Below, in pieces: positions 14,340 through 32,473 of a DNA stretch of 64,000 nt (positions are counted from its first letter, which is position 1; the number at the start of each line of letters is the position of its first letter). Location: contig JACPPM010000044.1 of assembly GCA_016191015.1 (NCBI GenBank), forward strand, positions 3,862-67,861. The letters run 5' to 3'. Both the position numbers and the translations under genes were made by a program. Below the pieces are notes generated by a model. It was not told where the DNA came from. It searched no databases and saw only the letters and a program-made list of their open reading frames with translations. The DNA comes from Acidobacteriota bacterium. GTDB lineage: Bacteria > Acidobacteriota > CAIWXX01.

Positions 14340-16190
14340 CTAGGCGGGATCAGTCGTGCACTGAGCCAGCCTCGACGGGTGAATGCGATAGATCTGAAAC
14401 CCGGCCCGCGCCATGCAGCTCGGAATGCTTCTGACGGTGCGCCGATTCTTCTCCTTCTCGCTTTCAGCGAGATCAGTCCAGGGAACGAGGTCCGGGTGCA
14501 ACTTCTTCTGGAGATCCCTGATGAGTCCGTGTTTCCACCCGTGCGCCTTCTTTTCCTCGACCCACCGACCATGCTCTTCTTGTGCCAGCTTCTCAATCTC
14601 GGCTTCCGCAAATAAGAAGTTATCGGCTCCGTAATCGGTCCATGGAGTGATGCCGCATCCGACCGTGATCAGCTTCCTGAGGATATCCCCTGCCTGTTGA
14701 CGATTCGTTTCCCTCACTTGTTCGGGGAGATGCTCCCATTCCACGAGGCTGGGATTGGGGGCGGCCGCACCGAGTGTGTGCCTCTCATCGCGGAGGTAGG
14801 CCTCGTGTATGACTCGAGCCAGGGTCTCGTGAGTGCCATCGTCGAGGAGACCCGGCCTACAAGTCCTATCGAGCAGTCCGAATGCCGTCAGGGTCGCCAG
14901 CTCCTCGTGGCACGAACGGACCTCGCGGAGCAACGCGGCCAGTCCTGTGTCCTCAGTCATTCGGACAAGGATTTGGATCTTCTCGGTCCGAACTCGCTGC
15001 AGAACCTCGAGGCCGGCACACAGGGCCATGGAAGAATCATCCACGCAGACATAGACATGAGTCATTTCGCACCGGTTCCGAGCGTCCCACAGCAGACTCG
15101 ACTTCCGGAACTCGGGCTTCCGAGTGTCGAAGTCGAGCGGGGTGAGGGCGCAGACGGTGTTGACCAGCGGGAAGCGCGAGCGCATCGCTTCCAGTTTACG
15201 GCTCGCCTCGGGATCGACCACCAGAATTCGCAGTGTGACGCGCGCGCGTGTGAATTCGCTGCTCCACCTCCGAGCCATGTGCACGATAAGGCTCTCGCCG
15301 AATCTGCCGAGCCCGACGATCAGCACACTGGGGGGATTTCCGTTCGGGTTCTGCTCTGCGAAGAGTGGGAATTCGCGGAGCACTTCTCGCGCTCCACTAT
15401 CGAAGATGTTAAAGAACTCTAGCCTGAAGGAGCCGCCGCCGGATGCAGTGAATTCGCGCTCACGGAGCAGAGTCCAAAGCTGTGGATCGACGATGTGAAT
15501 CGCACAGGTCAGCTTCCCCCGTTTCCGCCCCTTCGCCATGTCACGCGCCAGAACTGCCACTTCGGCATTCGCGCCATCGTCGGCGCAGACCGAAATCAGA
15601 TGCTGCGCCCGTTGCACGCCGGCCTTTCGCAGCACAGCCGCCTCCCGGGCGTCTCCAATAATGACGAACGCCCCCAGCTCCCAACTCGTCTCGACGTGCG
15701 GATTACCGGCGTCCTTTTCGACCACAACCACGCGTCGCCCTTGTTGACGGAACTCTCTGACGAGCCGCATTCCTTTTCGGCCGAGGCCGCAAATGACCAC
15801 GTGGCCGCGAAATCGTCGCAGACGGACCGCGCGGACCTGGTCGCGGAAGACAATGAGCAGCCCCTGAACAAACGCGTAGGCGGCAATCGCGGGGGAGAGG
15901 AACCTCGCGAGATCCAGTGTCCACGGCATGTGCACGCATGGATCCACATCCCCGGAGGATTCCATCACGAAGAGCTGGATGGACTGGTAGATGATACCCT
16001 TCAGGGTATACGACCTGCCTAGCATTGCGTAGTGACGCGCAAAGCCGAGAATTCCCACTCCCAGGGAAAACAGGCCGACGACGATCAGGAGCCGCCATTC
16101 GTTCTGGCGCCAAAAGGACTTAAACTTGGCAAGCAAGACCGATGATCGCAACACTGCGGCCCTCCGTTCGAGAGTGGAAATCAAGCGCAA
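14340..16190 (-). CDS. Ion-channel-like membrane protein: 2-TM pore module with a non-canonical filter, two RCK/TrkA-N Rossmann domains and a C-terminal tandem RyR-like module
   Basis: TM1 LLIVVGLFSLGVGILGF. Pore-helix/filter-like IYQSIQLFVMESSGDVD (compare K-channel TxGYGD and the CASTOR/POLLUX-type ADSGN filter). TM2 ARFLSPAIAAYAFVQGLLIVF. RCK motifs VVICGLGRKGMRLV and VLIVGLGRFGESLI. C-terminus LAQEEHGRWVEEKKAHGWKHG...LVPWTDLAESEKEKNRRTVRSIP. The TTG start at 16190 is uncertain. Confidence 0.75.
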   Translation of the reverse strand: MRLISTLERRAAVLRSSVLLAKFKSFWRQNEWRLLIVVGLFSLGVGILGFARHYAMLGRSYTLKGIIYQSIQLFVMESSGDVDPCVHMPWTLDLARFLSPAIAAYAFVQGLLIVFRDQVRAVRLRRFRGHVVICGLGRKGMRLVREFRQQGRRVVVVEKDAGNPHVETSWELGAFVIIGDAREAAVLRKAGVQRAQHLISVCADDGANAEVAVLARDMAKGRKRGKLTCAIHIVDPQLWTLLREREFTASGGGSFRLEFFNIFDSGAREVLREFPLFAEQNPNGNPPSVLIVGLGRFGESLIVHMARRWSSEFTRARVTLRILVVDPEASRKLEAMRSRFPLVNTVCALTPLDFDTRKPEFRKSSLLWDARNRCEMTHVYVCVDDSSMALCAGLEVLQRVRTEKIQILVRMTEDTGLAALLREVRSCHEELATLTAFGLLDRTCRPGLLDDGTHETLARVIHEAYLRDERHTLGAAAPNPSLVEWEHLPEQVRETNRQQAGDILRKLITVGCGITPWTDYGADNFLFAEAEIEKLAQEEHGRWVEEKKAHGWKHGLIRDLQKKLHPDLVPWTDLAESEKEKNRRTVRSIPSCMARAGFQIYRIHPSRLAQCTTDPA

Positions 16191-16376
16191 CCCTCATTGG
16201 ATTCCCCATTATGCAGAAACGGCTGGCAGGTGTCACGTACGGTCTGCACCGGGCTCAGCGGCGCGGCGAAGAATGAGCCGGGGTTGGAGAACCAGCACTC
16301 AATAGGCGCTGAGTTTGTTTGCTCCTGCCCGGGAAACATGAGGTAAGATCCGTGATCTTGGGAGCAGGAGGCGTCC

Positions 16377-18263
16377 ATGGAATACTTGTCTCGCTTGTTC
16401 AGAAGCACGGGGTCTTCGGGATCAGGGGGGAGCTCCAAAGTCTGCATCGCCTGTGGCGCACGCAACCCGGTCGTGGCGCGGTTCTGTAACCGTTGTGGTC
16501 TGGAGTTCAAGCAGGCGTTGACCCGGTACGATGCCTTCGTCAGCTATCGTCGTGATGGTGGCAAGGACATGGCGACGATCATCAGGCTTAGTCTGGAGAA
16601 GTTTAGCAAGACTGTGTTTGTGGACGTGGACGAGCTTCAAACCGGACGTTTTGATGAGAAGCTGCTGGAGGCGATACAGCGTTCGGATAGTTTCATTCTT
16701 GTCCTGAGTCCCGGGTGCTTGGACCGCTGTGTTCAGAAGAGTGATTGGCTGAAACGTGAAATCATGCATGCCCTTCAGCTCGATAAGTGCGTCATCCCTG
16801 TCATGCTGAGGGGATTCCAGTTTCCATCGGAGTCATTCTTCAAGCAATTGCCCGACCTCATGCGTGTGCTGCCAACGGTGAACGCTGTTTCCTACGACCA
16901 TGATAGCCGGGAGGCTGCGATCAGGAAAATACTGGATTTCATGGCCCACCCGACGACCCCCTTCTCAGGGACGCCGGGGGACGTTCGTGGCGAGGGAGCT
17001 CCCAACGGGCTCCAACAGTCTGGGCCCGTGGTCGACGAGAAGCCCCGACGATCTGCTGAGGCGGCGCGCCGTTCCCATCACACAGTGGGTGACGGGATTG
17101 AGGCGTCTCAGCCCGACCCGACGACCGAGTCTGGGACCATCGCAACCGGTTCAGACGATGGGGCTGTGGCCGGGAAAACGTTGCCTTCGCCGTCGCCGCA
17201 AGTCCGATCCACTTCCACGGATCAGATGAATTCCGACACTCATAAGGTCATTCGGTCTCTGCTTGGCAGCGTTTCTATCGCCTCTGCCGGGATTGGCTAT
17301 GTGGATAATCGTGCAGGGGTGTTCAACGAGATCATGTTGAGATGCAATGACGACGATCGGCTCGCTTTTGAGCAGATCGAGTCCTTTCTCCAGGACGAGA
17401 ATCAGTTGGCAGCTGACGCGGCGGCAATGATCCTCATTAAGCAACAGGCCGTTCCTTCCGTGCAGACTGTGGAGCGCCTCATAAGGATCGTGAGGGGTGC
17501 TGGTCATCCGCTTCTCGCACTCGACCTGGGGAATGCCTGGCAACAGAACCTGCGCGGCTGGTCAGTGGAGCTTCAAGACCTCGTTCTCCGTGCTCTCAAG
17601 TATGTTTCGCGCTACCATGGCGGCCCACAGGTTCGACACATGGCGATCGAGGCGTTGTGCCGCGTCGGCACGAAGGAGGCTATTGAGGTGATCACTGAGA
17701 TCATCCTGCAGAAGAAACCCTCCCCCGGGGACGCAGCCTGCGGCAAGGATTGGGAGTTGGCGATTAACTATCTTACCGGGTCGAAGAGCAGTGAGGCATC
17801 ACTCGCCGTTGCCGATCTCTGCCGGCAGGCTGACGATCCAGAAATCCTCAGGAGCGTTGCATACTGGGTGAAGTGCCACTACAACGTGGACACTCTCAGT
17901 GATGAAAGCCGCCGGGCCATTCTGACCTGTATGCAGGGCATCATCTGCAATCCAGAGATTGAGGAATTGGGCCGACGCGCGGCGCTCACCGTGGTGATTA
18001 ACCTTGATCCGAACGGTGCCTTGCTCATCCTGGAAGATGAGCTTCCAAAAGGAAGGGGCGAATTCGAAAGAATGATGATCCAGGCTATTGATGAAGCGTT
18101 CAGAGGACGGGAAAGATTGCTGTGTTTGCTCTCGAGAAGTCCTCTCCGACTATTGGCGAGGGAGCGAATGCTGTGCGTAGCTGGCGATCCTGAGACACCG
18201 AAGCTCATGGTGAGCATGGCTGAGAAGTTGGCCAAACAGCTTGATGTCCCGAGCATGACATAG
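16377..18263 (+). CDS. Zinc-ribbon, TIR domain and HEAT-repeat protein
   Basis: N-terminal CIACGARNPVVARFCNRCG. TIR: YDAFVSYRRDGGKDMATIIRLSLEK...VFVDVDELQTGRFDEKLLEAIQRSDSFILVLSPGCLDRCVQKSDWLKREI, with a candidate catalytic Glu in WLKRE. C-terminal HEAT/PBS-lyase-like repeats (VRHMAIEALCRVGTKEAIEVI). AGGAGG lies 6 nt upstream of the ATG. Confidence 0.85.
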   Translation: MEYLSRLFRSTGSSGSGGSSKVCIACGARNPVVARFCNRCGLEFKQALTRYDAFVSYRRDGGKDMATIIRLSLEKFSKTVFVDVDELQTGRFDEKLLEAIQRSDSFILVLSPGCLDRCVQKSDWLKREIMHALQLDKCVIPVMLRGFQFPSESFFKQLPDLMRVLPTVNAVSYDHDSREAAIRKILDFMAHPTTPFSGTPGDVRGEGAPNGLQQSGPVVDEKPRRSAEAARRSHHTVGDGIEASQPDPTTESGTIATGSDDGAVAGKTLPSPSPQVRSTSTDQMNSDTHKVIRSLLGSVSIASAGIGYVDNRAGVFNEIMLRCNDDDRLAFEQIESFLQDENQLAADAAAMILIKQQAVPSVQTVERLIRIVRGAGHPLLALDLGNAWQQNLRGWSVELQDLVLRALKYVSRYHGGPQVRHMAIEALCRVGTKEAIEVITEIILQKKPSPGDAACGKDWELAINYLTGSKSSEASLAVADLCRQADDPEILRSVAYWVKCHYNVDTLSDESRRAILTCMQGIICNPEIEELGRRAALTVVINLDPNGALLILEDELPKGRGEFERMMIQAIDEAFRGRERLLCLLSRSPLRLLARERMLCVAGDPETPKLMVSMAEKLAKQLDVPSMT

Positions 18264-18314: not shown

Positions 18315-18533
18315 TCACGGCATGCACCGAGGACAAGCGCCCCGTCCCTCACACACATCGCAGCGCTGCTCTCGGAAGCTCCCCTCGTACCAGAGGCCAC
18401 TTCCATCGCACGTCATGCAGATGCCACGCCCACTGCACGACGGACAGACGACGCCGGAGATACGTTTGATTCCTGCCGAATCGCCGTGATAGGGCGAGTC
18501 CCTCTGTGGTGGTGGTTTCTCGTCCGCCGTCAT
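18315..18533 (-). CDS. Small DnaJ-type cysteine-rich zinc-finger protein (CxxCxGxG repeats)
   Basis: CPSCSGRG, CMTCDGSG, CDVCEGRG and CPRC. It lies 97 nt downstream of, and on the same strand as, the RelA/SpoT-SLOG-RyR gene. Confidence 0.6.
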   Translation of the reverse strand: MTADEKPPPQRDSPYHGDSAGIKRISGVVCPSCSGRGICMTCDGSGLWYEGSFREQRCDVCEGRGACPRCMP

Positions 18534-18630
18534 GGGGCGCCGCCTGTGGGCTCCCTTAATCCTGGCCGCTTGTAGCTCATCGGGAGCCTTCCGTCATTCC
18601 CCGACCCCGGCGCCAGCGGACTCAGTCTCC

Positions 18631-21144
18631 CTATCTCCGCCGAAGCCGTCGTATCTGGTAGCCCGCACTCGCGAGCAGCTCGGGGATCGCGCGCACGGCT
18701 GCTCGATCCCACTCCTTCACTTCATCCGGCAGCTCACTCCAGCTGACAAGGTAAGGACTGGTCTTCTTCACGGGATCTCGCTTCTCGCCCCGCTTGAAAC
18801 CACTCAGCAGCCGCTCTGCATTCCATCGCCCGTGCTCCATCTGTGCCAATCGTTCGATTTCTGCTTTGCTGAATCTTACGAGCTTCGGTTTTCTCCCAAC
18901 AACGGTCGACACATCGTATCCAACTTCGTGAAGCTTCTGAAGTATGTGGTCCGCCTGATCCAAATTGGAGTCCTTGAAGACCTTGTCGAGGCGGTCCCAA
19001 TCGACCATCGCCGGTTCTGTCCGGATGACGCTTTCCGTGTGCGCCTCGCGGTACCGCTCATGAATCGACCGGGCCATCCTTTCGCGCTCTTCCGCTCGCC
19101 ACGGCGATTCCCCGGGGCCGACGAAAGCACGCACTGTCATGGGATCGTTCGGCAAGCTGACAAGACCAGGAGAATTAGACCAATCTTCGTCGAACCACAG
19201 CTTGGCGGCTTCGCGCCCGCTGTTTTCGATGATTCCCACGGTGGCACCGAGCGCCAGGGCAAGGCGATACTCGAACGCCGCGATCGGGCCCCCGTTGATT
19301 CCGAGGAGCCTCACCGAGGCGGGATCGATTCCTGCGCTGAGAATGTCCGTCCAATTCTGGAGCGGCTCCGCGGGGCCGAATCCGCTTCCATCTGTCCGTC
19401 GAATCTCGCGGTAGCGCTTGTCGACGGTGGCCTCAGCAGGGATGAGTTTCGGCAGGTAGCCGATGCCCCGGATGGAGGCACGGTACTTCTCGGCAAGGTC
19501 CCCGGCCAGTCCGCTGATGCCTTGGGTTGTTCCGCCGGAGATGACGACGCCTTGATAATCCTTGAATGCGGCAGTCATGAGATTGCGATATTCATCCATC
19601 TGCTCCTGAACGGAACGATCGCACCCGCCTGCGACAATGACCACGCGCCCCGAGATCGGCTTGCATCCCTCGGATGAGTGCTTGAGCAATGTGTTCCGTC
19701 GAGATTCCGTCGGAAACTTCGCGGCCAGACCGATTTCCTCCAGCCTGAGCGCCCAACCGAAGCCGGCGATGCCGTCGCGCGTCGCCTCCAGCCGCTCGAT
19801 CGATCTCATCGAGGACTCGATCATGAATGCGGCAGTGCTCAGCTGGATGGCCTTGGCGAATGATATCAAGCTCTCGGAGGGCCGCCCGAGGTGAAGGATG
19901 AATTTGCCCATGCTGAAGAAGGCCCAGGGTAGGTTCACGCCGACGCGGGCCTGTTGGCGGCACCGATCGAGAGACGCGATGATCGTCGGCCTGAGCATCG
20001 GGACGACCGAGAGATCACGCCGCAAGATGATCTCGGCGTCGAGATAGTTTCCGAGCGCATACGGATCAGTGGGGTCCGCTTCGAACGCCAGCCGGTAGAG
20101 CTGTCGCGATTTCTCGTCATTGACCCCTTTCCAGGTTCCGGCCAGAGACGCGATGGAATCGATGTCCGGCTTCGTCGTGCTCATGGACTTCTCCAGGAGC
20201 GACTGGCCGCGTCGATAGTGCCGGCTCTTCGGATCCTTCTGGTGGACCTTGCAGAGGGCCACCCCAAGATCCCGCAAGAGAGGATTGCAATCTGATCCGG
20301 CATGTTCACCAAGCACCTCAATAGCGCGATCCCAATCTCCCAATGAGATCGCCAGCTTTCCGAGCTTCGCAGCGACCTGGACGTTTCCCCGGTCAAGCGT
20401 GCGAACGAAGTCCAGTACCTCGATCTCTCGCTGCATTCTTTCCGGCGTCATGTAGACACCGAAAGAGGAGGAGTACGCTCGCAAGGCGTCCACGACCCGT
20501 GAGAAGGAGTTATCAGCATTCTCCAGGAGGGCGGCGACAGCAGCGAGCTCACGCTCGAGTGCTTCCGGAACCTTGAAGCCGGCTTTGTAGACGAAATCAT
20601 GCGAGATATCAGCCCAGGCGTGTTCGAGGAGTGTGCGGACCTGAACCTCGGCGCGCGGGTTTTCCATCCTGTAAAGGACTTTCGGGACGTGTGTGCTCAC
20701 GATGGGATTCGGGAACGTGCCTTCCCTGAAGCTCACAATGTAATGAACTGAGCGGTAGCCAAACTCGGCGGGCCTGTGACGTTGGCTGACGTCGACACTG
20801 TTTTCCCAATCGATGAGAAAGTGGTCTTCGATGAATTTCGAAACAGCCTTCACTTCCTCGGGCGTATGGACGATGACGCGACCGCCACAGAGGTCCGTGA
20901 ATTCGTCAACGGGATTCTTGTGACCCGCTCGCTTTCGAAAGATCTTGTCGGCGAAGCTTGAGAGGGCCTTGGGGCGAGTCTGGACGATCGCGAGCGGCGC
21001 CAGCTTGCCGCTGACCTGCTCCAGGACGTCTCTCAGCGTCCGCGCGAAGATCTCGTAGTTCGCGGCTCGGGACCGATATTTGGCAATCTGCCGTCGAGCC
21101 CAATCGCGGTCGGAATTCGCAGAGTCAGATGTCGCCTTTGCCAT
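18631..21144 (-). CDS. RelA/SpoT-type nucleotide pyrophosphokinase domain, TPR-like helical region, SLOG (LSDAT/LOG-like) domain and tandem RyR-like module
   Basis: RSH synthetase motifs TDLCGGRVIVH, EFGYRSVHYIVSF and EVQVRTLLEHAWADISHDFVYK. SLOG motifs VVIVAGGCD...VVISGGTTQGISGLAG...LLGINGGPIAAFEYRLALALGATVGIIENSGREAAKL. C-terminus LAQMEHGRWNAERLLSGFKRG...LVSWSELPDEVKEWDRAAVRAIPELLASAGYQI. Confidence 0.85.
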   Translation of the reverse strand: MAKATSDSANSDRDWARRQIAKYRSRAANYEIFARTLRDVLEQVSGKLAPLAIVQTRPKALSSFADKIFRKRAGHKNPVDEFTDLCGGRVIVHTPEEVKAVSKFIEDHFLIDWENSVDVSQRHRPAEFGYRSVHYIVSFREGTFPNPIVSTHVPKVLYRMENPRAEVQVRTLLEHAWADISHDFVYKAGFKVPEALERELAAVAALLENADNSFSRVVDALRAYSSSFGVYMTPERMQREIEVLDFVRTLDRGNVQVAAKLGKLAISLGDWDRAIEVLGEHAGSDCNPLLRDLGVALCKVHQKDPKSRHYRRGQSLLEKSMSTTKPDIDSIASLAGTWKGVNDEKSRQLYRLAFEADPTDPYALGNYLDAEIILRRDLSVVPMLRPTIIASLDRCRQQARVGVNLPWAFFSMGKFILHLGRPSESLISFAKAIQLSTAAFMIESSMRSIERLEATRDGIAGFGWALRLEEIGLAAKFPTESRRNTLLKHSSEGCKPISGRVVIVAGGCDRSVQEQMDEYRNLMTAAFKDYQGVVISGGTTQGISGLAGDLAEKYRASIRGIGYLPKLIPAEATVDKRYREIRRTDGSGFGPAEPLQNWTDILSAGIDPASVRLLGINGGPIAAFEYRLALALGATVGIIENSGREAAKLWFDEDWSNSPGLVSLPNDPMTVRAFVGPGESPWRAEERERMARSIHERYREAHTESVIRTEPAMVDWDRLDKVFKDSNLDQADHILQKLHEVGYDVSTVVGRKPKLVRFSKAEIERLAQMEHGRWNAERLLSGFKRGEKRDPVKKTSPYLVSWSELPDEVKEWDRAAVRAIPELLASAGYQIRRLRRR

Positions 21145-21218
21145 GGAAGCACCTCACAATTGAAAGGATGAAACTACGAAGCGCCGGGTGAGGCATCGAG
21201 GGCCTCTCGGATCGTTCA

Positions 21219-21623
21219 TCAACCCCGGCACTGCAGGTACGCTTCGATCTGTTCCTTCATCGATGTGCTCAATGGATAGTTCACGTACTCGGCCGGATCG
21301 ATCCAGGCGTAGGTGTCGTGCTCGGAGCTCAAGCAGACGGCGCCTCCCGCGTAGTCACAGACGAAAGTCACGCCGGTAACCCAGAAAGGCTGTTTGCTGA
21401 AATGCCAAATCTTGATGGGTTGTCCCACGGCTACGGCAAGTCCTGTCTCTTCGCTCACCTCTCTCTCGACCGCCTTGACCAGCTCTTCGCCGTACTCGAG
21501 CTTGCCCCCGGGAAGCTCCCAGAGTCCCGGATCATGAGTCGAAATGGCCGCACGTCTGATGAGCAAGATCTTGCCGTCGCGCCTGATGATTGATTTCCCC
21601 GCAACCCCAAGTGGCCTATCCAT
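21219..21623 (-). CDS. NUDIX hydrolase
   Basis: Complete Nudix box GGKLEYGEELVKAVEREVSEETGL (Gx5Ex7REUxEExGU). Confidence 0.9.
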   Translation of the reverse strand: MDRPLGVAGKSIIRRDGKILLIRRAAISTHDPGLWELPGGKLEYGEELVKAVEREVSEETGLAVAVGQPIKIWHFSKQPFWVTGVTFVCDYAGGAVCLSSEHDTYAWIDPAEYVNYPLSTSMKEQIEAYLQCRG

Positions 21624-21782: not shown

Positions 21783-22913
21783 CTACAGAATGGGCGCGTC
21801 TCCGGGCCTGAGGCTTGCGAGGAGTTCCAGCCGCATCGCGTCGATGAGAAAGCCCTGCATCTTCTCGTCGCCCCTCCCGTGATTCCGAGTGGCCAACACC
21901 ACTACGAGGCCACTCGGAAGCCGGACCGCATCCATGACGAGCTCCATGCTGTTCGGACGGGCCGGCGGCGACCAGATGAGGCGGAGCCCCGATGCGCCGT
22001 TTTCGTCCATGCGGATCTTCCGGAAGACGCTGCCCTGACGCCGCTCATAGCCCGGGACCCGCTCGAAGACCGTCTCGTTCACCTGCAGATGGCCCCCTTC
22101 GTCCAGAAGGTGGAGGCTTACGTCCAGAGGTCCCGGCATGGCCCGCCAGGCGGCACGGCGGTCTTCATCCGTCGTCTCTGTCCAGTCAGCCGGCACGCCG
22201 ATCAGGACCCTTCCTCCGAGAACCGAACGATCAACCACGCGGGGGATCTCCAGGCGACAGAGCTGAACAACGGCGTCCATCAGGGGCTCGCAGATTGCGA
22301 AGTGCGCCTCCGTGACGCAGGTGAACTGCACGACGTACTCGCTCAAGTGGAGCGTGAAGCTATACCTCCGGACCCTGCCGCCGTTGGGGTGGATGGCATC
22401 CGTAACGACGCACCAGTGGCCGGCGAAGTTCGTGATCTCGTTCCTGACGACGTTCGCACCCAGTTGGTTCTCGTAGTGATGCTTGGCATAGGCCTGCACA
22501 AGCGCGGGAGTTCGGTTCTCCTCGTCGAGGATCGCACTGACTCCCACCCGTAATATGAGGCCGACCGGGTCGATGAAGAACTTCACCCCCGTCCACGGAT
22601 CGTCGTCGCCCCGCTCGCTCGGCCAGGCCCCGGCCACTTGATAGAACAGGTGACGAAGCTGCCGCTGCTGCCCGGCGTTTGTGAGCCCTTGGATCTCGGC
22701 ATGCACCCTCTCGGCCGTTGGAAGAGGCGAGGAGAGTCGGGCGCGAGCAGCGACCACGAATGCGAGCGCGATGACCAGAGCAATCCCGATGCTCTTGGGA
22801 CCCAGGAGCCACCAGTGCCGCCAGACTCCGACTCCCCAACCGATCGCAACCCATGCCAGCAACGTTCCGAGTGCATTCACGGTTCTCGCTGTCGGCGCGC
22901 CCCTCCCGTTCAT
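21783..22913 (-). CDS. Membrane-anchored hypothetical protein (two predicted N-terminal TM helices plus a soluble domain of about 280 aa)
   Basis: The internal ATG at 22913 forms an ATGA overlap with the stop of the upstream STAND gene. TM segments LGTLLAWVAIGWGVGVW and IGIALVIALAFVVAA. The longer ORF (to 23417) overlaps the STAND gene and is rejected. Confidence 0.6.
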   Translation of the reverse strand: MNGRGAPTARTVNALGTLLAWVAIGWGVGVWRHWWLLGPKSIGIALVIALAFVVAARARLSSPLPTAERVHAEIQGLTNAGQQRQLRHLFYQVAGAWPSERGDDDPWTGVKFFIDPVGLILRVGVSAILDEENRTPALVQAYAKHHYENQLGANVVRNEITNFAGHWCVVTDAIHPNGGRVRRYSFTLHLSEYVVQFTCVTEAHFAICEPLMDAVVQLCRLEIPRVVDRSVLGGRVLIGVPADWTETTDEDRRAAWRAMPGPLDVSLHLLDEGGHLQVNETVFERVPGYERRQGSVFRKIRMDENGASGLRLIWSPPARPNSMELVMDAVRLPSGLVVVLATRNHGRGDEKMQGFLIDAMRLELLASLRPGDAPIL

Positions 22914-25900
22914 TCTTGAACCTCCTTGACGATTGGGATATCCCACGCGAGGGCGGCGAAGCCACGCGAGCCCCACGCCCAAATCTCCCGGCGCTCCGCG
23001 ACGATTGTACATCCTTCCGGTGCCCACTCGAGCGGGAAGCAGCCCGTCCAGCGAATCGGGGGTGACTCGTCCTCCCGGGGCTCGAACATCCGGACAAAGC
23101 CGGCAGAGTCTATGAGCACCCCCACTCGGCCGTCGCGACTCAGTGCAGCGGTGCGAATACCGGGCAGCAGCTTCACCGGCGGACTCGCCATGCCATTCAG
23201 GAGAAGCCACGCACCCATCGCGCCGTCGGTGAGGAGCACGCGTTGGCCGGTGCCGTCCACGGCTAGGGGACCACCCAACTCGAACGGTCCAGCGATCGTC
23301 TCCTCGCTCCGGATCGAGATCGAGAAAGGACGTGAGTACCATCCCGCGTCGACCGCGATCTGGCCGGAGTCGGCGATCAGCGCGCCCGTACACCAGCCCT
23401 CCATCCATCGCTCCCATATCCGCCTCCAGGGAGAGATCGTGAATGCCTGGAGGCGGGTCCGCTTAGCGCCCTCGACTGTTCGGCAGCCGACAAGAAGATA
23501 CCGGCCGTCGGGCGAGACGCTCGACAGCATGAGGTGAACGGTGTGCTCAGGGAGATCGTCGGGGGGACCGAGATTCATGGGAGGGTCCGACGTCGAGCAC
23601 CTCGCCAGATAAGAACGAGATCGACCTTCGAAGACGAGGAGTCCCTCGCTCGAGCCGATTCCGTGGAGAGCGCGCAACGCCCCTCCCGCGTCGCCAATCG
23701 GAAGCGCCGTCGTCACGTCTCCCGCGGGCACTTCCCAGAGCATCCCCCTCCTTTCGGCAAGCAGCGTCTTGCCCTCTGCCAGAGGAGCGATCCCGGCTAC
23801 GGCGTCGCGCGGCATCGAATTATGGGGCTGCGCCGGGAAGCCGAGATCCGGGGGATGCAGGATTCGCAGCACACCCTGCTCGTGCAGGACCGCTATCGCC
23901 TCAACGCCCGGGAAGACTCCCACCCACGAAGCGTATGACCCGGCTTCTGCGAGAACTTCGGTTTGCCATGCCGTCGACTCCGAGCGGCGCGAGCACGCCC
24001 CCCGCTCATCGACGGAGATGACGACGCGGCCATCCTCCTCCAGGATTGCACAGGTGATGCCCACGCCTGTCTCGCCATGCAATCGGACGCATCCGGAAAC
24101 CGCGATGACCTCGAGGTGGCCTGTACCGAGCACAACCGCATACCGTTGCCCGTCGGACGAGAGGCTCAGCGCGCGTACCTCCCCCGCGTGTCGCGAGAGC
24201 GGCAGAATCTCTCCGTCCAAGCTGCCCCGCCAGACCTGACCTCCATCGGTCCCCAACAGCCACTGCCGTCCGTCCGGCGCGATCGTCACGGCGCTCGGTC
24301 TCCCGCTGATGGTGCCCTGACGCATGCGCGTGGGTCGGGCCTGGGTGAGGTCGTACAGGACCCACTCACCCGACTCAGCCGAGACCACGAGCCGCGAACT
24401 GCCAGCAGCGAGTGCCAGCCCGGCAATCGGCCAGCCCGTACGAAACAGAAACGGCGGCTCGGTGGGGAGTCCCCGCCAGAGGGCCACATTCTGCCCGGCG
24501 ACGCCGACGACATGCCGATCGTTTGCGTCCAGATATCGAAGCCCACCGGGAGCCCCGAGTCCTTCTTGACGTACGACGCCTTCCGAATCCAGTACGATCC
24601 AGCGCCCCGACTGCTCGAACACGAGAAGCCCGAGAGGCGACAGTGCGACGGTCAACGGTCCGGGACGGTCCCCGATCCGGATCTCCTGCACACGAGTTCC
24701 CGTGATGTGGCTGGGTGAGGTGCGACTGCGGACCAGCGTTTGACCGGCCCGGCGAATGCTCTCGGCGTGGACGTCGAAACGTCGCTTGCATTCCTGTCCC
24801 ACACGCGAGCTCCAGCGGACGCGATGCCAGAGCTGCTGAAAGGCGAGTGTGTCATGTCGGCGGATACTGGGAGCTTCCGCCCAGAGCAGCGAGAAGAGAG
24901 CATCGTAGTCGGCTACGTTCGGGTCGGGCGGCCCGGCCCTGCCGGATTGCCGCTGCCATTCGCCGCCGGCGTGCCTTAGATCGGCCAGCATTCGATCGAC
25001 CCCGAGCTCCGGCGACACGCAGGTGCTGGAGAGGAAGCTTGGGCTGGTGAGGCGATCGTGGAGGGAAGTCCAGTCTCCTGCAGCCGCACTCTGAAACGCA
25101 CTCTCGTAGAGGCGGCGCGTCTCTGACGGCACCGATCGCGGATCGTTCTTGGAAAGAACCGGTTTCGGCCAGAGGAAGAGCGACGCGAGAGCGGCGTGCC
25201 GCTGGCAGCGTTGCTGAGAGTCACTCAGGTAGATCTCGCGGACGATATCCGCCACCATCTGATCGCGAAGTACGAGTACAGGGGCTCCCGGCGCACGCAT
25301 CTCGAAGAGGTAGGGCTCGATGTCCGAGTAGAGCCGGGCCCAGATGACAGGAGGCACCTGCGCGAACTCAGGCGACTTGCGGCCCAGGTGACGGAGCTCG
25401 GCGATCACTTCCGGATCCAGGGAAAGAGTGGCGACCAGCTCGTCTTCAGCGAGCCCGGAACGAGCGGAGGCAAGGTAGGCAAGGCAGCGGTCGACCAGCT
25501 TTGCCCCGTGTCGGCTCGGACTCGAAAGGCGCTCGAGCCGCCGCAGTACCAACTCGCGCTCGTCGCGGGCGAGCCGCGTCTCTTCCACGGGCGAGAACGA
25601 GTGCCACTCACGGGCCTCTTCGAACGCAAGCCGCAGATAGAGGGGAGAGGGACAGGCACGAAAGCCGGTGAGGACCGCCTCTCGCTGAGACGGTGAGAGA
25701 GTCCGCCCGGCCTGGTCGAGCCAGCGGTCGAGGAGCAGCTCTCCCTCAGAGGCCGTCATACGCGGGAGCGCGCAAATGGCCGCTTCCCCGAATCTTTCGG
25801 AGAAGGGGGCCGGCGGTTCGGCCGCCGCAACCGACAGGACGAGACGTACATGCGCCGGAAGCTGCGGCGCGGGTGGGATCCACGCGAGCCCTCTGGACGC

Positions 25901-27295
25901 CGCTTCTTCTGTCAGCCTCTCCAGTCCGTCGACAAAGAGGATGAGGGGCGTCTCCGGCCGAGCGCTTTCCAGGCACCTGGCAAACTCGCTCACCATCTCC
26001 GCAGGGCCGGCGCTCACGTCCACCTGGATGCCGAGCGCCCGCGCGATTTCGTCGCAGATCGAAGCAAGGAGTGGCTGCAATCGAGTGGACGCCGCCGTGG
26101 CGCCTAGATAGCGTGCAACGATGACCGCGTTCCCCTGCCGCTCCCGTGCACAGCGTGCCGCGTGCGCCATTAGGGCAGACTTGCCGCTTCCCGGTGGCCC
26201 CCAGAGAACGAGCGGATGCTTCGCATCGCTCCCGAGGTACTCCTCGACTTGGCGAAGCGTCTTCTCCCTGCCCACGAACGGGGAGGCCGTCTGGACGGCG
26301 AAGGCGCCGTGTCGATCGCATTCCCGCTGAAGAGGCGTGACAGTCGTATGACTCTTGGACTCGGAGACGATGATGGCCGCGAGTCTCCGGAAGACATCCT
26401 TGCAGAGGCGATCGACCTCCAGCCGACGTAGCTGTGCTTCCTTCCCGTCCCAGACGGCCGAGTAGCTCTTGATCTGTCCTGGAAGCCGGTCTATCAGCGT
26501 CTGCCGGAGAGCCAGCACTCGATCGTGAGCGAAGCGATCGTGCGCCCACCCGTGGTCGGGATCGAAGTCGGCGTAATCGCGCGCCTTCGGAATCGACTCT
26601 GCATCGAGGACGAGGCGTTCCAGATTGGTAATCGTCCGGAAGAAGCCGAACACATGTTGGCAGGCGTCGGGAACCGCCAGCGCGCCCCGATGGATCTCCT
26701 GCTCTGTGGCAGAAGCACCGTATTTCAACCCTGGGGCGACCTCCGGGCTCCCGGATGACGAAGAGAGATCCCGCGTCCCACGGTGGAGAAACGGAAGGAG
26801 GCGGGACTCGACTTTGCGCCAGGCGACGTCATCCTCGCACAACCCCACCCGGGACCTCAGAATCCACTCAGCGACTACCCTCCCTGCTCGCCGCCGCGCA
26901 GCGTTCCCGTCATGCACGTACCACTCGCGGAGCTCGTCCATCTCACGCTCCGTACAGCGCGATACGATCAGCTCCCACTCGTCATCCGATATGTAAGGGG
27001 GGAGGGGTCGCCAACCATACCGATCGCCGAGGAGGACGATGAAGTTCGGGCGCGGAGAGAGGCGCTGGCAGCGGGCCAGCTCCTCGAAGCAGACATTCAG
27101 AGTGCGGTGGTCGAGCGAAGCCTCTGCGCTGACGCCCCAACGGAGGTCAATGGCCTGGAAACTGGCCCCACGACGCTGGCAAAGTCGACGGAGTCGGGGG
27201 AAGACGCGCTCATCAAGCGCGTTGCGCTCCTCGACGAAGTCGGCAAAGGTGGAGCTGACGAACACCCTGAAGACGGTTCCGCGCTCGCGGGTCAT
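22910..27295 (-). CDS. Second STAND NTPase: DUF4062-like N-terminus, NACHT P-loop, helical arm and a divergent beta-propeller-like C-terminal region
   Basis: FRVFVSSTFADFVEERNALDERVFPRLRRLC...IDLRWGV...FIVLLGDRYGWRPLP. Walker A LVLWGPPGSGKSALMAHAA. Walker B-like LILFVDGLERL. Weak blade-like units in the C-terminus (VTIAPDGRQWLLGTDGGQVW, LSLSSDGQRYAVV, VSPDGRYLLVG, ALSRDGRVGVLI). The ATG at 27295 has AGGAG 6 nt upstream; the ORF is open to 27445. Confidence 0.85.
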   Translation of the reverse strand: MTRERGTVFRVFVSSTFADFVEERNALDERVFPRLRRLCQRRGASFQAIDLRWGVSAEASLDHRTLNVCFEELARCQRLSPRPNFIVLLGDRYGWRPLPPYISDDEWELIVSRCTEREMDELREWYVHDGNAARRRAGRVVAEWILRSRVGLCEDDVAWRKVESRLLPFLHRGTRDLSSSSGSPEVAPGLKYGASATEQEIHRGALAVPDACQHVFGFFRTITNLERLVLDAESIPKARDYADFDPDHGWAHDRFAHDRVLALRQTLIDRLPGQIKSYSAVWDGKEAQLRRLEVDRLCKDVFRRLAAIIVSESKSHTTVTPLQRECDRHGAFAVQTASPFVGREKTLRQVEEYLGSDAKHPLVLWGPPGSGKSALMAHAARCARERQGNAVIVARYLGATAASTRLQPLLASICDEIARALGIQVDVSAGPAEMVSEFARCLESARPETPLILFVDGLERLTEEAASRGLAWIPPAPQLPAHVRLVLSVAAAEPPAPFSERFGEAAICALPRMTASEGELLLDRWLDQAGRTLSPSQREAVLTGFRACPSPLYLRLAFEEAREWHSFSPVEETRLARDERELVLRRLERLSSPSRHGAKLVDRCLAYLASARSGLAEDELVATLSLDPEVIAELRHLGRKSPEFAQVPPVIWARLYSDIEPYLFEMRAPGAPVLVLRDQMVADIVREIYLSDSQQRCQRHAALASLFLWPKPVLSKNDPRSVPSETRRLYESAFQSAAAGDWTSLHDRLTSPSFLSSTCVSPELGVDRMLADLRHAGGEWQRQSGRAGPPDPNVADYDALFSLLWAEAPSIRRHDTLAFQQLWHRVRWSSRVGQECKRRFDVHAESIRRAGQTLVRSRTSPSHITGTRVQEIRIGDRPGPLTVALSPLGLLVFEQSGRWIVLDSEGVVRQEGLGAPGGLRYLDANDRHVVGVAGQNVALWRGLPTEPPFLFRTGWPIAGLALAAGSSRLVVSAESGEWVLYDLTQARPTRMRQGTISGRPSAVTIAPDGRQWLLGTDGGQVWRGSLDGEILPLSRHAGEVRALSLSSDGQRYAVVLGTGHLEVIAVSGCVRLHGETGVGITCAILEEDGRVVISVDERGACSRRSESTAWQTEVLAEAGSYASWVGVFPGVEAIAVLHEQGVLRILHPPDLGFPAQPHNSMPRDAVAGIAPLAEGKTLLAERRGMLWEVPAGDVTTALPIGDAGGALRALHGIGSSEGLLVFEGRSRSYLARCSTSDPPMNLGPPDDLPEHTVHLMLSSVSPDGRYLLVGCRTVEGAKRTRLQAFTISPWRRIWERWMEGWCTGALIADSGQIAVDAGWYSRPFSISIRSEETIAGPFELGGPLAVDGTGQRVLLTDGAMGAWLLLNGMASPPVKLLPGIRTAALSRDGRVGVLIDSAGFVRMFEPREDESPPIRWTGCFPLEWAPEGCTIVAERREIWAWGSRGFAALAWDIPIVKEVQE

Positions 27296-27511
27296 CAGAG
27301 GCTCCTGGTTGCGATCCCTTGGACCGCGGTGTCCACCGCGATTACCTGCGTGGCCGTCTTCATCCTCAGCCCGGCCGCCGTGCTCGCCGCCAGCGGCCGC
27401 TGCACGCCAGCTTCTCCGAGAGCTAGGGCGCAGCCAATAGTCCATTCATCCGTCATGCCCATGCAACGAGTTGGGTGCAAGAGGACCTCTTCGCGCGCTA
27501 TTGGCACCCGA

Positions 27512-29203
27512 TCAGGGATTCATCAGCCGTCCCACCTCCTGAAAGATGGTCGACGTGGCGAGCTTCAGATCCTCGACAACATCGCGCTTCCAGTACCGGG
27601 CCGCGGCCTTGGTGCCGCCGGGCAGGAGGCTGTGGAAGTAGGCGAGCTTGCCCTGAAGGCGATGGACCACGGAGAAGGTCACTTCGCTCTGGAAGAGGAG
27701 TGGATGTCGACAGAGCGAATCGAGCTCTGCAAGGCGATCGCGAAAAGCGAGCTCGGCAGGCCGATTGACGAGCTTCTCCTCAAGGAGCGCGCGCGCGGCA
27801 ACTCGGCCTGCCTGAATTACTTCGTCGACGCGCTTCAGATGACGAAGGCATTCCGCCCGGTGCATGTCGACAGCGGCGGTTCCAGTGCCAGCTGTCTGCG
27901 GCGCGGCACGGCCCTGCAGCGCCATGACAGCCCTGAGTTGTTCGACTCGCAGGTTGCCCTTTCCAAACAGGGAGTGCAGGGCCGAGAGCACCGAGTTGAG
28001 ATCCCGTGAGTTACCCGGCCATCGATGGTGCTGCATTTCTTGGAGGATCTCTTCCGGGAGCGCGGCGGTCTCATCCTTTGTGACCCTCTTCCACAGCGCC
28101 GCCGCGATCAGTGGGATGTCCTCGGGGCATTCTCTGAGTGTTGGTGTACGAATCATGAACCCTCGGAGACGGTAGTAGAGATCTTCTCTGAACAGGCCCG
28201 CCTGCACCAAAGAGAACAGATCGCGGTTGGTCGCCACGACGACCCGCGCGGAAACGTCGGTTTCCACGGAGCTCCCCAGCATCAGCACCTTCTTCTCCTG
28301 GAGCGCTCGCAGGATCTTGACCTGGTGGCGAGGTTCCAGGTCGCCGATCTCATCAAGGAAGATCGTGCCCTCCTGGGTATCCCGCCAAAGGCCCGCGCGG
28401 ACTCTGTCGGCACCCGTAAAGATCTTTTGATGTCCGAAGAGCATCGGTTCGAGCAGCCCGCTGGGTATGGCGCCGCAGTTGACCGGCGTGAAGGGACTGC
28501 TCTTGCGCCAGCTCTGTTCGTGGATGCACTTCGCGACGACTTCCTTCCCCGTGCCAGTGTCGCCGGTGATCAACACTGGATCCCCACTGGCGGCTGCGTG
28601 CATGATGAGCGCCCTCACCAGTTGTGCCTGCGCGGATCTGCCCACATAGCGCGTTTCGAGCTCCGAAGGCACCTTGGCGCTGTGCAGGAGATCCAGCAGC
28701 GTCCGAGCGAACACCGCGTTGTCTCCATCGGCAGGCCGCTGTTGCGCTGGTGTCCGGGATGAAATAGTAGGCGTCACTGAGACCGGGATGGGCGCGGCTA
28801 CATCCGTCTGCTTCCCGATCTCATCGAAGAGTTTCTGGGTCAGACCGATGACATAGACGTTTCTATCCCGCATGCGACTCGCATTCCCGAGGAGCGTCCT
28901 GATGCTTCTCATGCACTGCCCGGCCGACGTGAAGCCTCCGTCTATCAGTGGGATCTTTGAGCAGCCGAGAAGCAGCTTCGAGAGCTGCTTGGCTCTGTGT
29001 TTCCGGCCGCGGTCGATCGTCACATCCCTCAGCTGGCGCAGCGCGTGAAGATCATCGCTGCGGATGGCGACGGCTGCCGGGGCCATCTGCGATTTTATCT
29101 TTACAAGCTCTTGCGGCGACTCTGCCTCCAGCTCGGTGAGAGCCCCCTCGCACTCCCCGCCATCAATTCGGAACTGCAACACAGGAATCTTCATCGGCCC
29201 CAC
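27512..29203 (-). CDS. Sigma-54-interaction-type AAA+ activator (bEBP-like) with novel N- and C-terminal domains and no recognisable Fis-type HTH
   Basis: Walker A VLITGDTGTGKEVVAKCIH. MLFGHQKIFTGA stands in place of ELFGHEKGAFTGA. Walker B TIFLDEIGDL. Also VVVATNRDL, FREDLYYRL and WPGNSRDLNSVL. The last 100 aa or so are helical but lack the usual AAxxLGxSRxTLYRK HTH. Confidence 0.8.
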   Translation of the reverse strand: MGPMKIPVLQFRIDGGECEGALTELEAESPQELVKIKSQMAPAAVAIRSDDLHALRQLRDVTIDRGRKHRAKQLSKLLLGCSKIPLIDGGFTSAGQCMRSIRTLLGNASRMRDRNVYVIGLTQKLFDEIGKQTDVAAPIPVSVTPTISSRTPAQQRPADGDNAVFARTLLDLLHSAKVPSELETRYVGRSAQAQLVRALIMHAAASGDPVLITGDTGTGKEVVAKCIHEQSWRKSSPFTPVNCGAIPSGLLEPMLFGHQKIFTGADRVRAGLWRDTQEGTIFLDEIGDLEPRHQVKILRALQEKKVLMLGSSVETDVSARVVVATNRDLFSLVQAGLFREDLYYRLRGFMIRTPTLRECPEDIPLIAAALWKRVTKDETAALPEEILQEMQHHRWPGNSRDLNSVLSALHSLFGKGNLRVEQLRAVMALQGRAAPQTAGTGTAAVDMHRAECLRHLKRVDEVIQAGRVAARALLEEKLVNRPAELAFRDRLAELDSLCRHPLLFQSEVTFSVVHRLQGKLAYFHSLLPGGTKAAARYWKRDVVEDLKLATSTIFQEVGRLMNP

Positions 29204-31987: not shown

Positions 31988-32473
31988 AGCGTTCCTCCCC
32001 GGTTGGAAGTCCTGACTGGATTTACGATCAGATGGGACCATGCTACCTTACCAGGATGGGAATCGACAAGCACTTTGCCAGTCGATCCCGTGGACGCTGG
32101 CGCGAGAGTGCCGGAGGATGACAGCGTCGCACCAAGAAGACGCGATCTGACATGCCCCCCGCGACAGACACAACAGTCTCATCGCAAGCGGCGTCCTCCT
32201 ATCTCGGACGGCCATGAGCTGTGGCAAGAGTGACGTTGAGTAGTTGAGTTAGTTCACCCTTCGCGGCGAGCATTTGGTTGAGATTCATACCATCCCGCGC
32301 CGACCCTTCCGATATATCCTCCAAAATCAACGGGATGAGGGCATGCTGAGTGACAGGCACCTTCTGGCATCGAGCTTGCAACTCCCGCAAGCAGATGGCG
32401 ACGAACAGATCTCAGGCTCTGGCCCTCAGCGGGGGCCGCAGACTCGCGACAGCTCGTCATGAAGGAGGATCTC

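Follow-up and report, generated by a model that had tools for sequence, protein, structure and literature searches.

The MHR1/2 region of the channel TRPM2, an LSDAT-type SLOG domain, binds ADP-ribose (ADPR) (PMC13143021). Likewise, the SLOG domain of the Thoeris protein ThsA binds 3'cADPR. The Repeat12 (R12) domains of ryanodine receptors (RyR) bind ADP or ATP, with the adenine stacked on Trp880/881 (PMC12627627), and phage proteins of Pfam family PF02026 bind or hydrolyze 2'/3'cADPR via HxxW...K/H...D residues (two 2026 preprints). On the producing side, DUF4062 is described as a TIR-like NADase that makes ADPR and that is an effector of Avs-type defense proteins (three 2026 preprints). In other conflict systems, cyclic nucleoside monophosphate (cNMP) cyclase, GGDEF, and RelA are listed as alternative signal generators (Kaur et al. 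2020). Here, we examine a 64,000-nucleotide stretch of DNA from an Acidobacteriota bacterium (assembly GCA_016191015.1, contig JACPPM010000044.1, positions 3,862 to 67,861; hereafter, the window). At 18631-21144 on the minus strand, an intact open reading frame (ORF) encodes an 837-aa protein that joins RelA/SpoT, TPR, LSDAT-type SLOG, and RyR regions in a single chain.

The reading that we favor, and that we judge to be evenly balanced between right and wrong, is that this protein serves as the transducer in a module of two-step nucleotide signaling, part of an anti-phage-type conflict system. It is built on the identities of the domains, the intact synthetase site, the linkage to a NUDIX gene, the enrichment of TIR and DUF4062 genes nearby, the exchange of RelA for a cyclase among paralogs, and the RyR module that neighboring proteins share. 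NADase/TIR nucleotide-signaling conflict systems are a known kind. The new feature would be an alarmone synthetase as the SLOG-controlled output.

Domain architecture

Homologs of the 837-aa protein number at least 579. Below, results on homologs refer to 27 diverse members that were aligned and scanned with Pfam, and neighborhood counts refer to 81 loci, including a subset of 30 in which both flanks extend for 8 kb or more (full-flank loci). The full-length AlphaFold model of the protein (predicted local distance difference test (pLDDT) 85.3, predicted template modeling score (pTM) 0.76) has four parts: a synthetase (residues 1-230), helical repeats (234-488), an alpha/beta domain (495-676), and a helical double repeat (684-833). 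With this model as the query, Foldseek retrieved TPR-plus-Rossmann proteins, RyR3 Repeat12 with ADP or ATP, and RelQ/SAS1. The four domains are conserved to nearly equal degrees (0.65-0.71).

The RelA/SpoT pyrophosphokinase domain (residues 1-230; 20455-21144, minus strand) resembles small alarmone synthetases (SAS). Specifically, Pfam RelA_SpoT (PF04607) matches residues 56-188 with an E-value (E) of 8.8e-17 and 61.9 bits against a cutoff of 27, and the family is found in all 27 homologs. Pfam and NCBIfam scans of the 837-aa protein yield no HD hydrolase domain. Residues 10-220 align with Bacillus subtilis RelQ/YjbM (5ded, E 6.5e-10) and with RelP. The alignment to 5ded reveals the catalytic motifs RxKxxxSxxxK, DxxGxR, GYxSxH, and ExQxRT...W...H..YK, and residues R57, K59, K67, D84, G87, R89, G129, Y130, S132, H134, E166, Q168, T171, H175, W177, H182, and K187 are invariant in 27/27 homologs. 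The PADLOC candidate PDC-S33 also matches the SAS domain (E 2e-16). By these criteria, the protein is a synthetase-only (SAS-like) member of the superfamily of RelA/SpoT homologs (RSH) with an intact catalytic site and a predicted pyrophosphokinase activity.

An earlier reading of the same DNA, made from the letters and a list of ORFs (the original prediction), had recognized the core RSH synthetase motifs and the missing HD domain. The above-threshold PF04607 match, the RelQ alignment, and the invariance of the site agree with it, and every motif that it quoted is present in the translation. It had further likened the enzyme to a small alarmone synthetase or a toxSAS-type enzyme. The first half of that proposal holds, given the alignment with RelQ and RelP, and the second half is not supported. 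At E<=10, the PDB matches of the synthetase domain consist only of RelQ/RelP-type alarmone synthetases and three chance-level unrelated chains, and no toxSAS, CapRel, or Tas1 structure is among them. Membership in the toxSAS group (FaRel, FaRel2, PhRel, PhRel2, CapRel) is therefore not supported by comparison with solved structures, the closest of which are RelQ and RelP. The SAS class itself is defined as small and essentially single-domain, and the present protein, with 837 aa and three further domains, falls outside that definition.

TPR-like helical repeats occupy residues 234-488 (19681-20445, minus strand), as judged from the model and from homologs. Pfam TPR matches are weak in the 837-aa protein itself; TPR families are found in 23/27 homologs and TPR-S (PF20308) in 15/27. 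Foldseek pairs the region with SPY/OGT and with consensus TPR proteins.

Residues 495-676 (19117-19662, minus strand) form an LSDAT-type SLOG domain, a putative nucleotide-ligand receiver. LSDAT_prok is detected in 23/27 homologs (best E 2.3e-9). The SLOG part modeled alone reaches a pLDDT of 87.4 and a pTM of 0.88, and in a Foldseek search of the PDB, its 50 best matches are, with few exceptions, the N-terminal parts of TRPM4/5/2/8/3 chains (E 7e-7 to 6e-5; probability 1.00; TMq 0.5-0.68), ADPR-bound TRPM2 included. The SLOG protein MCP (2iz5) is matched as well. A sequence profile of the region searched against the PDB gave spurious matches only, for example to a designed WD40 protein; thus, the assignment stands on the family-level Pfam result and on the structural match. 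On that footing, the modeled fold indicates that the LSDAT-type SLOG identity is right, in keeping with the SLOG call of the original prediction and with the likeness to TRPM channel N termini that it had noted. Invariant residues are G506, G542, D575, E593, Q596, W598, D600, G618, G619, and E625, and glycine-rich loops are conserved alongside E625. In one homolog, from a metagenome-assembled genome (MAG) of Eisenbacteria (P0112), the first glycine-rich loop, ISGGTxxGISG, is degenerate (VSRLNADGGEP, aligned with residues 536-546 of the 837-aa protein) and the remainder is well conserved; ligand binding may have been lost in this protein.

The C terminus consists of tandem RyR repeats of the Repeat12 type (residues 684-833; 18646-19095, minus strand), a putative module for binding adenine nucleotides or ADPR-type ligands. 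Pfam RyR (PF02026) matches residues 761-832 (E 1.3e-13, 51.4 bits against a cutoff of 27.4) and is found in 27/27 homologs. The original prediction had the domain right; its extent is corrected here to a tandem pair, at approximately 684-833, on the basis of the model and of homology to a neighboring TrkA_N-RyR protein, to whose C terminus the RyR part is 42% identical (E 5e-35). A profile of the region matches R12 of RyR1/2/3 in the PDB at E 2.5e-27 (6uhi) to 1e-17, with its EHGRW aligned to the IHELW segment of RyR. H771, W774, and K794 are invariant and D813 is present in 26/27 homologs, and the four are spaced as are the cADPR-binding or catalytic residues of the phage RyR proteins. By our own reasoning, W774 would be the counterpart of the adenine-stacking Trp880/881 of PMC12627627. 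The sequence leaves three roles available to the repeats: receiver of an NADase signal, receiver of the RelA product, or processor of gcADPR.

Linkage to a NUDIX hydrolase

Upstream of the 837-aa gene, at a distance of 74 nt and on the same strand, lies a gene for a 134-aa NUDIX hydrolase of the NudG/MutT type (21219-21623, minus strand; Pfam and PDB matches). The canonical Nudix box GGKLEYGEELVKAVEREVSEETGL (GX5EX7REUXEEXGU) is present, and Pfam NUDIX matches with E 4e-19 and 69.3 bits against a cutoff of 21.1. Thus, the NUDIX call, the perfect box, and the upstream position given in the original prediction are all confirmed. The best NCBIfam match is NudG (PRK10546; E 2e-18), whose 66.5 bits fall below the equivalog cutoff of 156, so NudG/MutT denotes the nearest type only. 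Among PDB entries, E. coli NudG (2rrk) ranks first, at E 6e-14. ADP-ribose pyrophosphatase, suggested by analogy with the NUDT9-H domain of TRPM2, was set aside as the first choice, since it matched at E 6e-4 versus 6e-14 for the NudG/MutT type. The PADLOC candidate PDC-S07 also matches the NUDIX protein (E 6e-22).

The pairing recurs across the family. NUDIX homologs are present in 56/81 loci, and in 48/81 NUDIX is the immediate same-strand neighbor of Rel (38 upstream, 10 downstream), mostly within less than 60 nt or overlapping. Moreover, three proteins (P0159, P0201, P0206) are NUDIX-RelA-TPR-SLOG-RyR fusions with NUDIX at the N terminus. These fusions provide Rosetta-stone evidence for a functional link between NUDIX and Rel, and, together with the adjacency, they uphold the NUDIX-Rel link proposed originally. 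NudG and MutT have been reported to degrade (p)ppGpp (PMC7593582), and because the NUDIX protein is of this type, the idea of a producer plus a degrader fits.

The spacing of the genes is as originally stated, with 74 nt between the NUDIX and 837-aa genes and 97 nt between the latter and a downstream zinc-finger ORF. Plausible Shine-Dalgarno sequences precede both the NUDIX and the Rel genes. A promoter and terminator scan of 13-23 kb in the window returned site counts no higher than in shuffled sequence; thus, operon structure is argued from gene spacing only.

Candidate NADase genes and RyR proteins in the neighborhood

Candidate NADase genes lie on both sides of the NUDIX-Rel pair. Downstream, at 16377-18263 on the plus strand, a 628-aa Zn-ribbon-TIR-HEAT protein is a candidate NADase and signal producer (Pfam TIR_2 E 5.7e-11; PADLOC TIR models). 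This gene is on the strand opposite to Rel, 52 nt from the zinc-finger ORF. Just upstream of the NUDIX gene, at 22910-27445 on the minus strand, is a gene for a 1511-aa DUF4062(NIR)-STAND/NACHT-WD40 protein, an Avs-like sensor with a TIR-like NADase domain (Pfam DUF4062 E 1.1e-9, AAA_16, NACHT).

Iterative searches located TIR proteins in 25/81 loci and DUF4062 in 22/81, with a union of 42/81. In the full-flank subset, 20/30 loci possess a TIR or DUF4062 gene. These genes thin out ninefold with distance from Rel, from 1.79 per 10 kb in the nearest 1 kb to 0.20 per 10 kb at 6-10 kb, and 23/26 of those within 1 kb share the strand of Rel. Gaps of 1-40 nt or overlaps with Rel, several of them at its stop codon, occur in ten loci (L006, L009, L010, L019, L024, L025, L039, L041, L042, L062); in L006, L010, L019, and L025, Pfam identifies the genes directly downstream of Rel as TIR_2 fused to TPR, beta-propeller, or NACHT. 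De novo clustering of neighboring ORFs recovered only NUDIX, the RyR module, DUF4062-STAND, and a ClpB-like ATPase as recurrent.

The RyR module is found in two further proteins of the window. A 616-aa 2TM-TrkA_N(RCK)-RyR protein (14340-16190, minus strand; TrkA_N E 1.3e-19; RyR E 3.7e-20, two stretches) has two transmembrane (TM)-like segments, at residues 31-53 and 97-115. It is channel-like and a candidate RyR-gated effector; homologs occur in 27/81 loci. An 892-aa AAA+-RyR protein (29363-32041, minus strand; Pfam RyR E 2e-24, two stretches; AAA E 2e-4) begins with an N-terminal region of approximately 450 aa (KKIAIVTGD...GGAALVAG), contains an AAA+ P-loop (GPPGSGKS), and ends in a double RyR. 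By eye, the N-terminal region is possibly sugar-kinase-like. Orthologs of this protein occur in 7/81 loci (L028, L064, L066, L067, L078, L079, L080). Some Rel family members lack RyR, matching the query over residues ~6-675 (L064, L066, L067, L079, L080), and an AAA+-RyR gene (~890-1000 aa) lies upstream of such Rel genes, directly in L064, L066, and L079 and nearby in L080. RyR is therefore separable from the Rel protein.

In L084, a NUDIX-Rel fusion is followed by a 95-aa RyR protein (11033-11320) and a TrkA_N protein (11339-13330), two parts that are fused in other loci. A phage-type integrase (13631-14665) and an IS1595 transposase (16693-17691) come next, which suggests that the module resides on a mobile island.

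Cyclase paralogs

The closest paralogs of the family carry a different catalytic domain. Four of them (P0193, P0207, P0216, P0213) share the TPR-SLOG part at 45-50% identity, lack RyR, and have in the RelA position a cyclase of the adenylate/guanylate type together with a STAND ATPase, plus an N-terminal zinc ribbon. In 4/4 independent cyclase-type loci with flanking sequence (L086, L088, L089/L090, L093), the immediate neighbor is a TIR_2-beta-propeller (TIR-WD40) gene. None of the four contains a NUDIX gene, and two, L086 and L088, contain cNMP-binding genes. Thus, three associations are observed: TIR with TPR-SLOG, NUDIX with RelA, and cNMP-binding proteins with the cyclase. The RelA/SpoT domain therefore occupies the slot of a nucleotide-messenger generator. 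Given the NADase linkage and the position of the cyclase paralogs beside TIR-WD40, a signal derived from the NADase is a likelier ligand of SLOG than the product of RelA.

Family distribution

The fusion architecture, of which the original prediction knew no description, is not rare. Relatives occur in 344/185,579 species genomes (one genome per species), and a search of 1.84 billion representative proteins with the TPR-SLOG-RyR part (residues 235-837) returned 844 50%-identity clusters at E<=1e-30. Most of the listed matches start at approximately residue 220-250 of the target, as would be expected with a putative N-terminal synthetase in front. The top 120 homologs are almost all 776-1053 aa long, with 93-100% query coverage and 46-63% identity, and one is 89% identical; the nearest named relative is from an Acidobacteriota MAG (63% identity). 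One homolog of 1053 aa (P0117) has an extra KaiC/RecA-like ATPase domain (PF06745). The best 80 of the 344 genomes are all metagenome-assembled and span many bacterial phyla as well as archaeal lineages, namely Bathyarchaeia, Methanobacterium, Methanoregulaceae, Halobacteriota, and Thermoplasmatota. Stand-alone SAS relatives are found on small plasmids and prophages.

The family is frequent in metagenomic data. Its annotations are generic, either "RyR domain-containing protein" or "ppGpp synthetase/RelA/SpoT-type nucleotidyltransferase," and matches in defense catalogs are limited to parts, namely the SAS domain (PADLOC PDC-S33) and the NUDIX enzyme (PDC-S07). LSDAT was reportedly defined by Burroughs et al. 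in NAR in 2015. A literature search that did not cover that paper found no description of a RelA/SpoT-LSDAT-RyR protein or of its coupling to NUDIX and to TIR/DUF4062; an earlier depiction of the architecture may exist in the LSDAT-defining paper.

Accessory genes and other features of the window

Directly downstream of the 837-aa gene, a 72-aa mini zinc-finger ORF (18315-18533, minus strand) has four CxxC motifs and is DnaJ/anti-TRAP-like. Pfam and NCBIfam give sub-threshold family matches only, and the ribosome-binding site is poor; because of its four CxxC motifs, the ORF is probably a real small gene. By phmmer and jackhmmer, relatives occur in only 3/81 loci, are weak, and never adjoin the Rel gene; mini-proteins sharing G(I/T)WYEG...CPxC are confined to L002, L078, and L084 (Anti-TRAP, 75 aa). 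The original prediction had named this gene as a flank of the Rel gene. Its scarcity and its placement away from Rel led us to reject it as a core partner, and we treat it as a loosely associated accessory.

A 237-aa protein and a 158-aa DSP-PTPase of the PTP-SAK type (13106-14292, minus strand) are lineage-specific accessories. The PTPase matches PTP-SAK at E 5e-10, and the 237-aa protein has no Pfam match. Both follow the Rel gene directly in the 89%-identical relative (L002) and in no other of the 81 loci; that confinement excluded them as core partners. A match to a sigma-70-like promoter (16208-16236, minus strand) closely precedes the start of TrkA_N-RyR, and the PTPase gene is followed at once by a hairpin that resembles a terminator (13027-13045, minus strand). 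Neither kind of site exceeds the counts in shuffled sequence; taken at face value, the two would frame an operon of TrkA_N-RyR, the 237-aa protein, and the PTPase.

Elsewhere in the window, a second DUF4062-NACHT-WD40 protein (1489 aa; 5241-9710, plus strand; N terminus IRVFISSTFRDMHAERDHL) is encoded directly after an 862-aa VIT-VWA protein (2579-5167, plus strand). With two DUF4062-STAND genes, the region resembles a conflict-system island. A sigma-54 activator-type AAA+ protein that lacks a receiver domain is encoded at 27512-29203 (minus strand), and its kind recurs beside these systems in several unrelated loci (L002:687-2369, L024:13055-14779, L081:7795-9528). Such activators may regulate transcription of these systems. 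Between the STAND and NUDIX genes, a 544-aa ORF (21783-23417, minus strand) without a Pfam match shares approximately 500 nt with the 3' end of the STAND gene. In the 89%-identical relative, a 365-aa WD40 gene takes this place, and the true gene in the window is probably shorter, or decayed. Finally, the window encodes a Band7/SPFH protein (32459-33685, plus strand) and an EAL-HDOD protein (41668-42882, minus strand).

Proposed mechanism and alternatives

We envision the module to function as follows. A TIR-repeat/STAND or DUF4062(NIR)-STAND-WD40 NADase would detect the invader and convert NAD+ to ADPR or a derivative. Binding of that ADPR-type ligand would fall to the LSDAT-type SLOG domain, to judge by its homology and its context. 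The ligand would then switch on the RelQ-like pyrophosphokinase, which is predicted to move pyrophosphate from ATP onto a nucleotide's 3'-OH. The product would be a (p)ppGpp- or (p)ppApp-type alarmone; as a result, growth would stop, ATP would be drained, or further receivers would be activated. The NudG/MutT-like NUDIX enzyme, whose substrate is presumed to be this product, would hydrolyze it, setting the threshold for firing and protecting the untriggered cell. The RyR double repeat may be an adenine-nucleotide module whose input is the signal of the NADase or else the product of RelA. Because the RyR module is common to Rel, TrkA_N-RyR, and AAA+-RyR, the three proteins would respond together. 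Signs of a conflict system are the PDC-S33 and PDC-S07 matches, the patchy spread across domains of life, and the integrase and insertion sequence (IS) element in L084.

Several observations weigh against this reading. In the 837-aa protein itself, Pfam LSDAT_prok (PF18171; residues 501-649, E 3e-4) reaches 20.6 bits, short of the 25.4 bits that Pfam sets as its gathering score. The invariant E625 is, in our reading of the sequence, the glutamate of a LOG-type motif, and so an enzymatic rather than a sensing SLOG domain is possible. Two candidate sensors, SLOG and RyR, reside in one chain, which makes the division of ligands between them ambiguous. A cNMP_binding-RyR fusion (L086:16526-17983, minus strand) lies beside the cyclase-STAND-TPR-SLOG and TIR-STAND-WD40 pair of that locus; thus, RyR is not tied to RelA alone, and a simple equation of RyR with an alarmone receptor does not fit. 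In 10/30 full-flank loci, no TIR or DUF4062 gene is present within 10 kb, and since approximately one-third of these loci lack an NADase gene, the NUDIX-Rel pair must be able to work without a dedicated neighbor. Conservation is unusually high for a defense gene: identity between phyla is ~50%, and the TPR region is no exception to the conservation. Searches of plasmids and phages yielded no full-length copy, only single-domain matches. Finally, the evidence on the family is computational throughout, and the ligands and products are predicted.

The loci without an NADase gene suit the model of the original prediction, a self-contained toxin and antidote, in which a toxSAS-like (p)ppApp toxin drains ATP, NUDIX serves as a type-IV-like antidote, the SLOG and RyR domains detect either what the enzyme itself makes or a nucleotide of the cell, and the TIR and DUF4062 genes belong to independent island systems. 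NUDIX and Rel are indeed the only near-universal core, adjacent in 48/81 loci and at times fused, and SAS relatives stand alone on small plasmids and prophages. RelQ, moreover, is allosterically activated by its own product, which we count in favor of this model. Neutralization of toxSAS enzymes by alarmone hydrolases is likewise an established principle (PMC7229694). Such a model does not account well for TIR and DUF4062 genes within 1 kb that share a strand with Rel and often overlap it, unlike loose island neighbors, nor for the cyclase-bearing TPR-SLOG proteins, which are again paired with TIR-WD40 and lack NUDIX. The closest solved relatives are, furthermore, the non-toxic RelQ and RelP, and no toxSAS structure appears at E<=10. 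From the original idea of producer, sensor, and degrader in one locus, the NUDIX linkage is retained, and the self-contained reading overlooks the NADase genes in 20/30 full-flank loci and the cyclase paralogs beside TIR-WD40. We regard the toxin/antidote model as unlikely.

A macromolecular target would place the family among effectors of abortive infection: the enzyme would pyrophosphorylate the tRNA 3'-CCA, as do FaRel2 and CapRel, under the control of SLOG or RyR, with NUDIX either erasing the modification or serving some unrelated purpose. Translation-targeting toxSAS enzymes are well-established effectors against phages (PMC11559606, PMC9712102), the PDC-S33 match points the same way, and the scheme would be workable in archaea, which mostly lack (p)ppGpp signaling (PMC3153485) and which carry the family. 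We nonetheless find it improbable: the RelA slot is shared with a cNMP cyclase, the maker of a small-molecule messenger, the best matches, aligned over the whole fold, are the small-molecule synthetases RelQ and RelP, and a MutT/NudG-type NTP hydrolase as the partner suits a soluble nucleotide product better. The high and even conservation across phyla, TPR included, instead calls to mind a housekeeping or stress regulator, in which SLOG and RyR would sense NAD+/ADPR or adenylate status and prompt alarmone synthesis, with NUDIX providing turnover. Such conservation is unlike that of a fast-evolving invader sensor, the full-length copies are chromosomal only, and a role in sensing ADP or metabolism has been described for RY12 of RyR1 (PMC13642953). 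Yet a regulator of this kind would hardly be confined to 344/185,579 species genomes in a patchy pattern across bacteria and archaea, be tightly linked to TIR, DUF4062-STAND, and Avs-like genes, match PADLOC candidates, or be accompanied by mobile-element genes in L084 and L092. We accord it little credence.

Within the favored reading of a NADase-triggered transducer, we speculate, more tentatively, about a relay of two messengers. An ADPR-type signal from the NADase would act on the LSDAT SLOG domain, which would elicit either an alarmone from RelA or a cNMP from the cyclase. RyR would be the receiver of the alarmone branch on 2TM-RCK and AAA+ effectors, and NUDIX would reset the system. We consider this elaboration possible but doubtful. 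If the favored reading is right, the module would be the first bacterial or archaeal case in which an NAD+-derived immune signal is converted to a second nucleotide messenger rather than acting directly on a terminal effector, and alarmone chemistry would be tied to TIR/NADase immunity. It would also supply a function for prokaryotic LSDAT SLOG domains and for host-encoded RyR domains, and explain the presence of RSH-type synthetases in archaea, which mostly lack a stringent response. The LSDAT SLOG and RyR domains are ancestors or relatives of the ligand-sensing modules of animal TRPM channels and ryanodine receptors, and if the more tentative two-messenger relay is true, the nucleotide-sensing LSDAT and NUDIX parts of TRPM2 and the R12 domain of the ryanodine receptor would descend from one bacterial/archaeal signaling toolkit. 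The set to be tested is about six genes, and the ligands are commercially available.

Relationship to known systems

Small alarmone synthetases of the RelQ/RelP (SasB/SasA) and toxSAS types have the same catalytic fold and motifs as the present protein and likewise lack HD. A two-gene arrangement with a product-degrading enzyme, as in toxSAS systems, is plausible here. Unlike these enzymes, the 837-aa protein has TPR, SLOG, and RyR regulatory domains, and its family extends to archaea and to numerous phyla that are represented chiefly by uncultured genomes. Furthermore, the partner is NUDIX, not a small alarmone hydrolase (SAH) or a protein antitoxin, and NUDIX is no described type of toxSAS antitoxin.

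TRPM2 is a parallel in that its LSDAT/MHR1/2 region and its NUDT9-H NUDIX domain correspond to parts found here: TRPM chains are the best structural matches of the SLOG model, and LSDAT SLOG, NUDIX, and a channel-like 2TM-RCK protein (27/81 loci) occur together. In contrast to TRPM2, the NUDIX enzyme is MutT/NudG-like and not an NUDT9-type ADPR hydrolase, the parts are separate genes, there is no TRP pore, and the output is a pyrophosphokinase. Similarly, the RyR repeats match ryanodine receptor R12 with ADP or ATP bound. For both TRPM2 and the ryanodine receptor, what is shared is domains, not a system. The phage proteins RyDEP and RyR Tad (2026 preprints) belong to the same family, PF02026, and their HxxW...K...D residues have counterparts in H771, W774, K794, and D813. 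However, those are small viral counter-defense proteins, whereas here host multidomain proteins carry the module as a tandem repeat at the C terminus, with putative ligand binding or catalysis.

Thoeris, in which ThsB (TIR) acts with ThsA (SIR2-SLOG; other effectors in later types), likewise has a TIR gene beside a SLOG-superfamily protein and, as the expected signal, an NAD+-derived ADPR isomer. Linkage at the level of the operon is seen in part of the present loci, and in the window itself the TIR gene is on the strand opposite to Rel. The differences are that the SLOG domain here is of the LSDAT/TRPM clade and is fused to a messenger generator, RelA/SpoT or, in paralogs, a cyclase, that NUDIX and RyR modules are present, and that TIR can be replaced by DUF4062-STAND or be absent. 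Thoeris effectors are terminal (SIR2, TM, and Macro-TM modules), whereas the output of the RelA/SpoT family is itself a generator of a messenger. The TIR protein of the window scores far below the cutoffs of Thoeris protein models (ThcB4, 26 bits versus 220; PADLOC ThsB, E ~1e-4).

The closest paralogs are adenylate cyclase-STAND(AAA_16)-TPR proteins of actinobacteria and of other multicellular-type bacteria, which share TPR-SLOG and the TIR-WD40 neighbor. As in the NTP-dependent conflict systems (Kaur et al. 2020), where RelA is listed among the alternative signal generators, one such generator takes the place of another. Specifically, the Rel family has RelA instead of the cyclase, has no STAND ATPase in the chain, and adds RyR and NUDIX.

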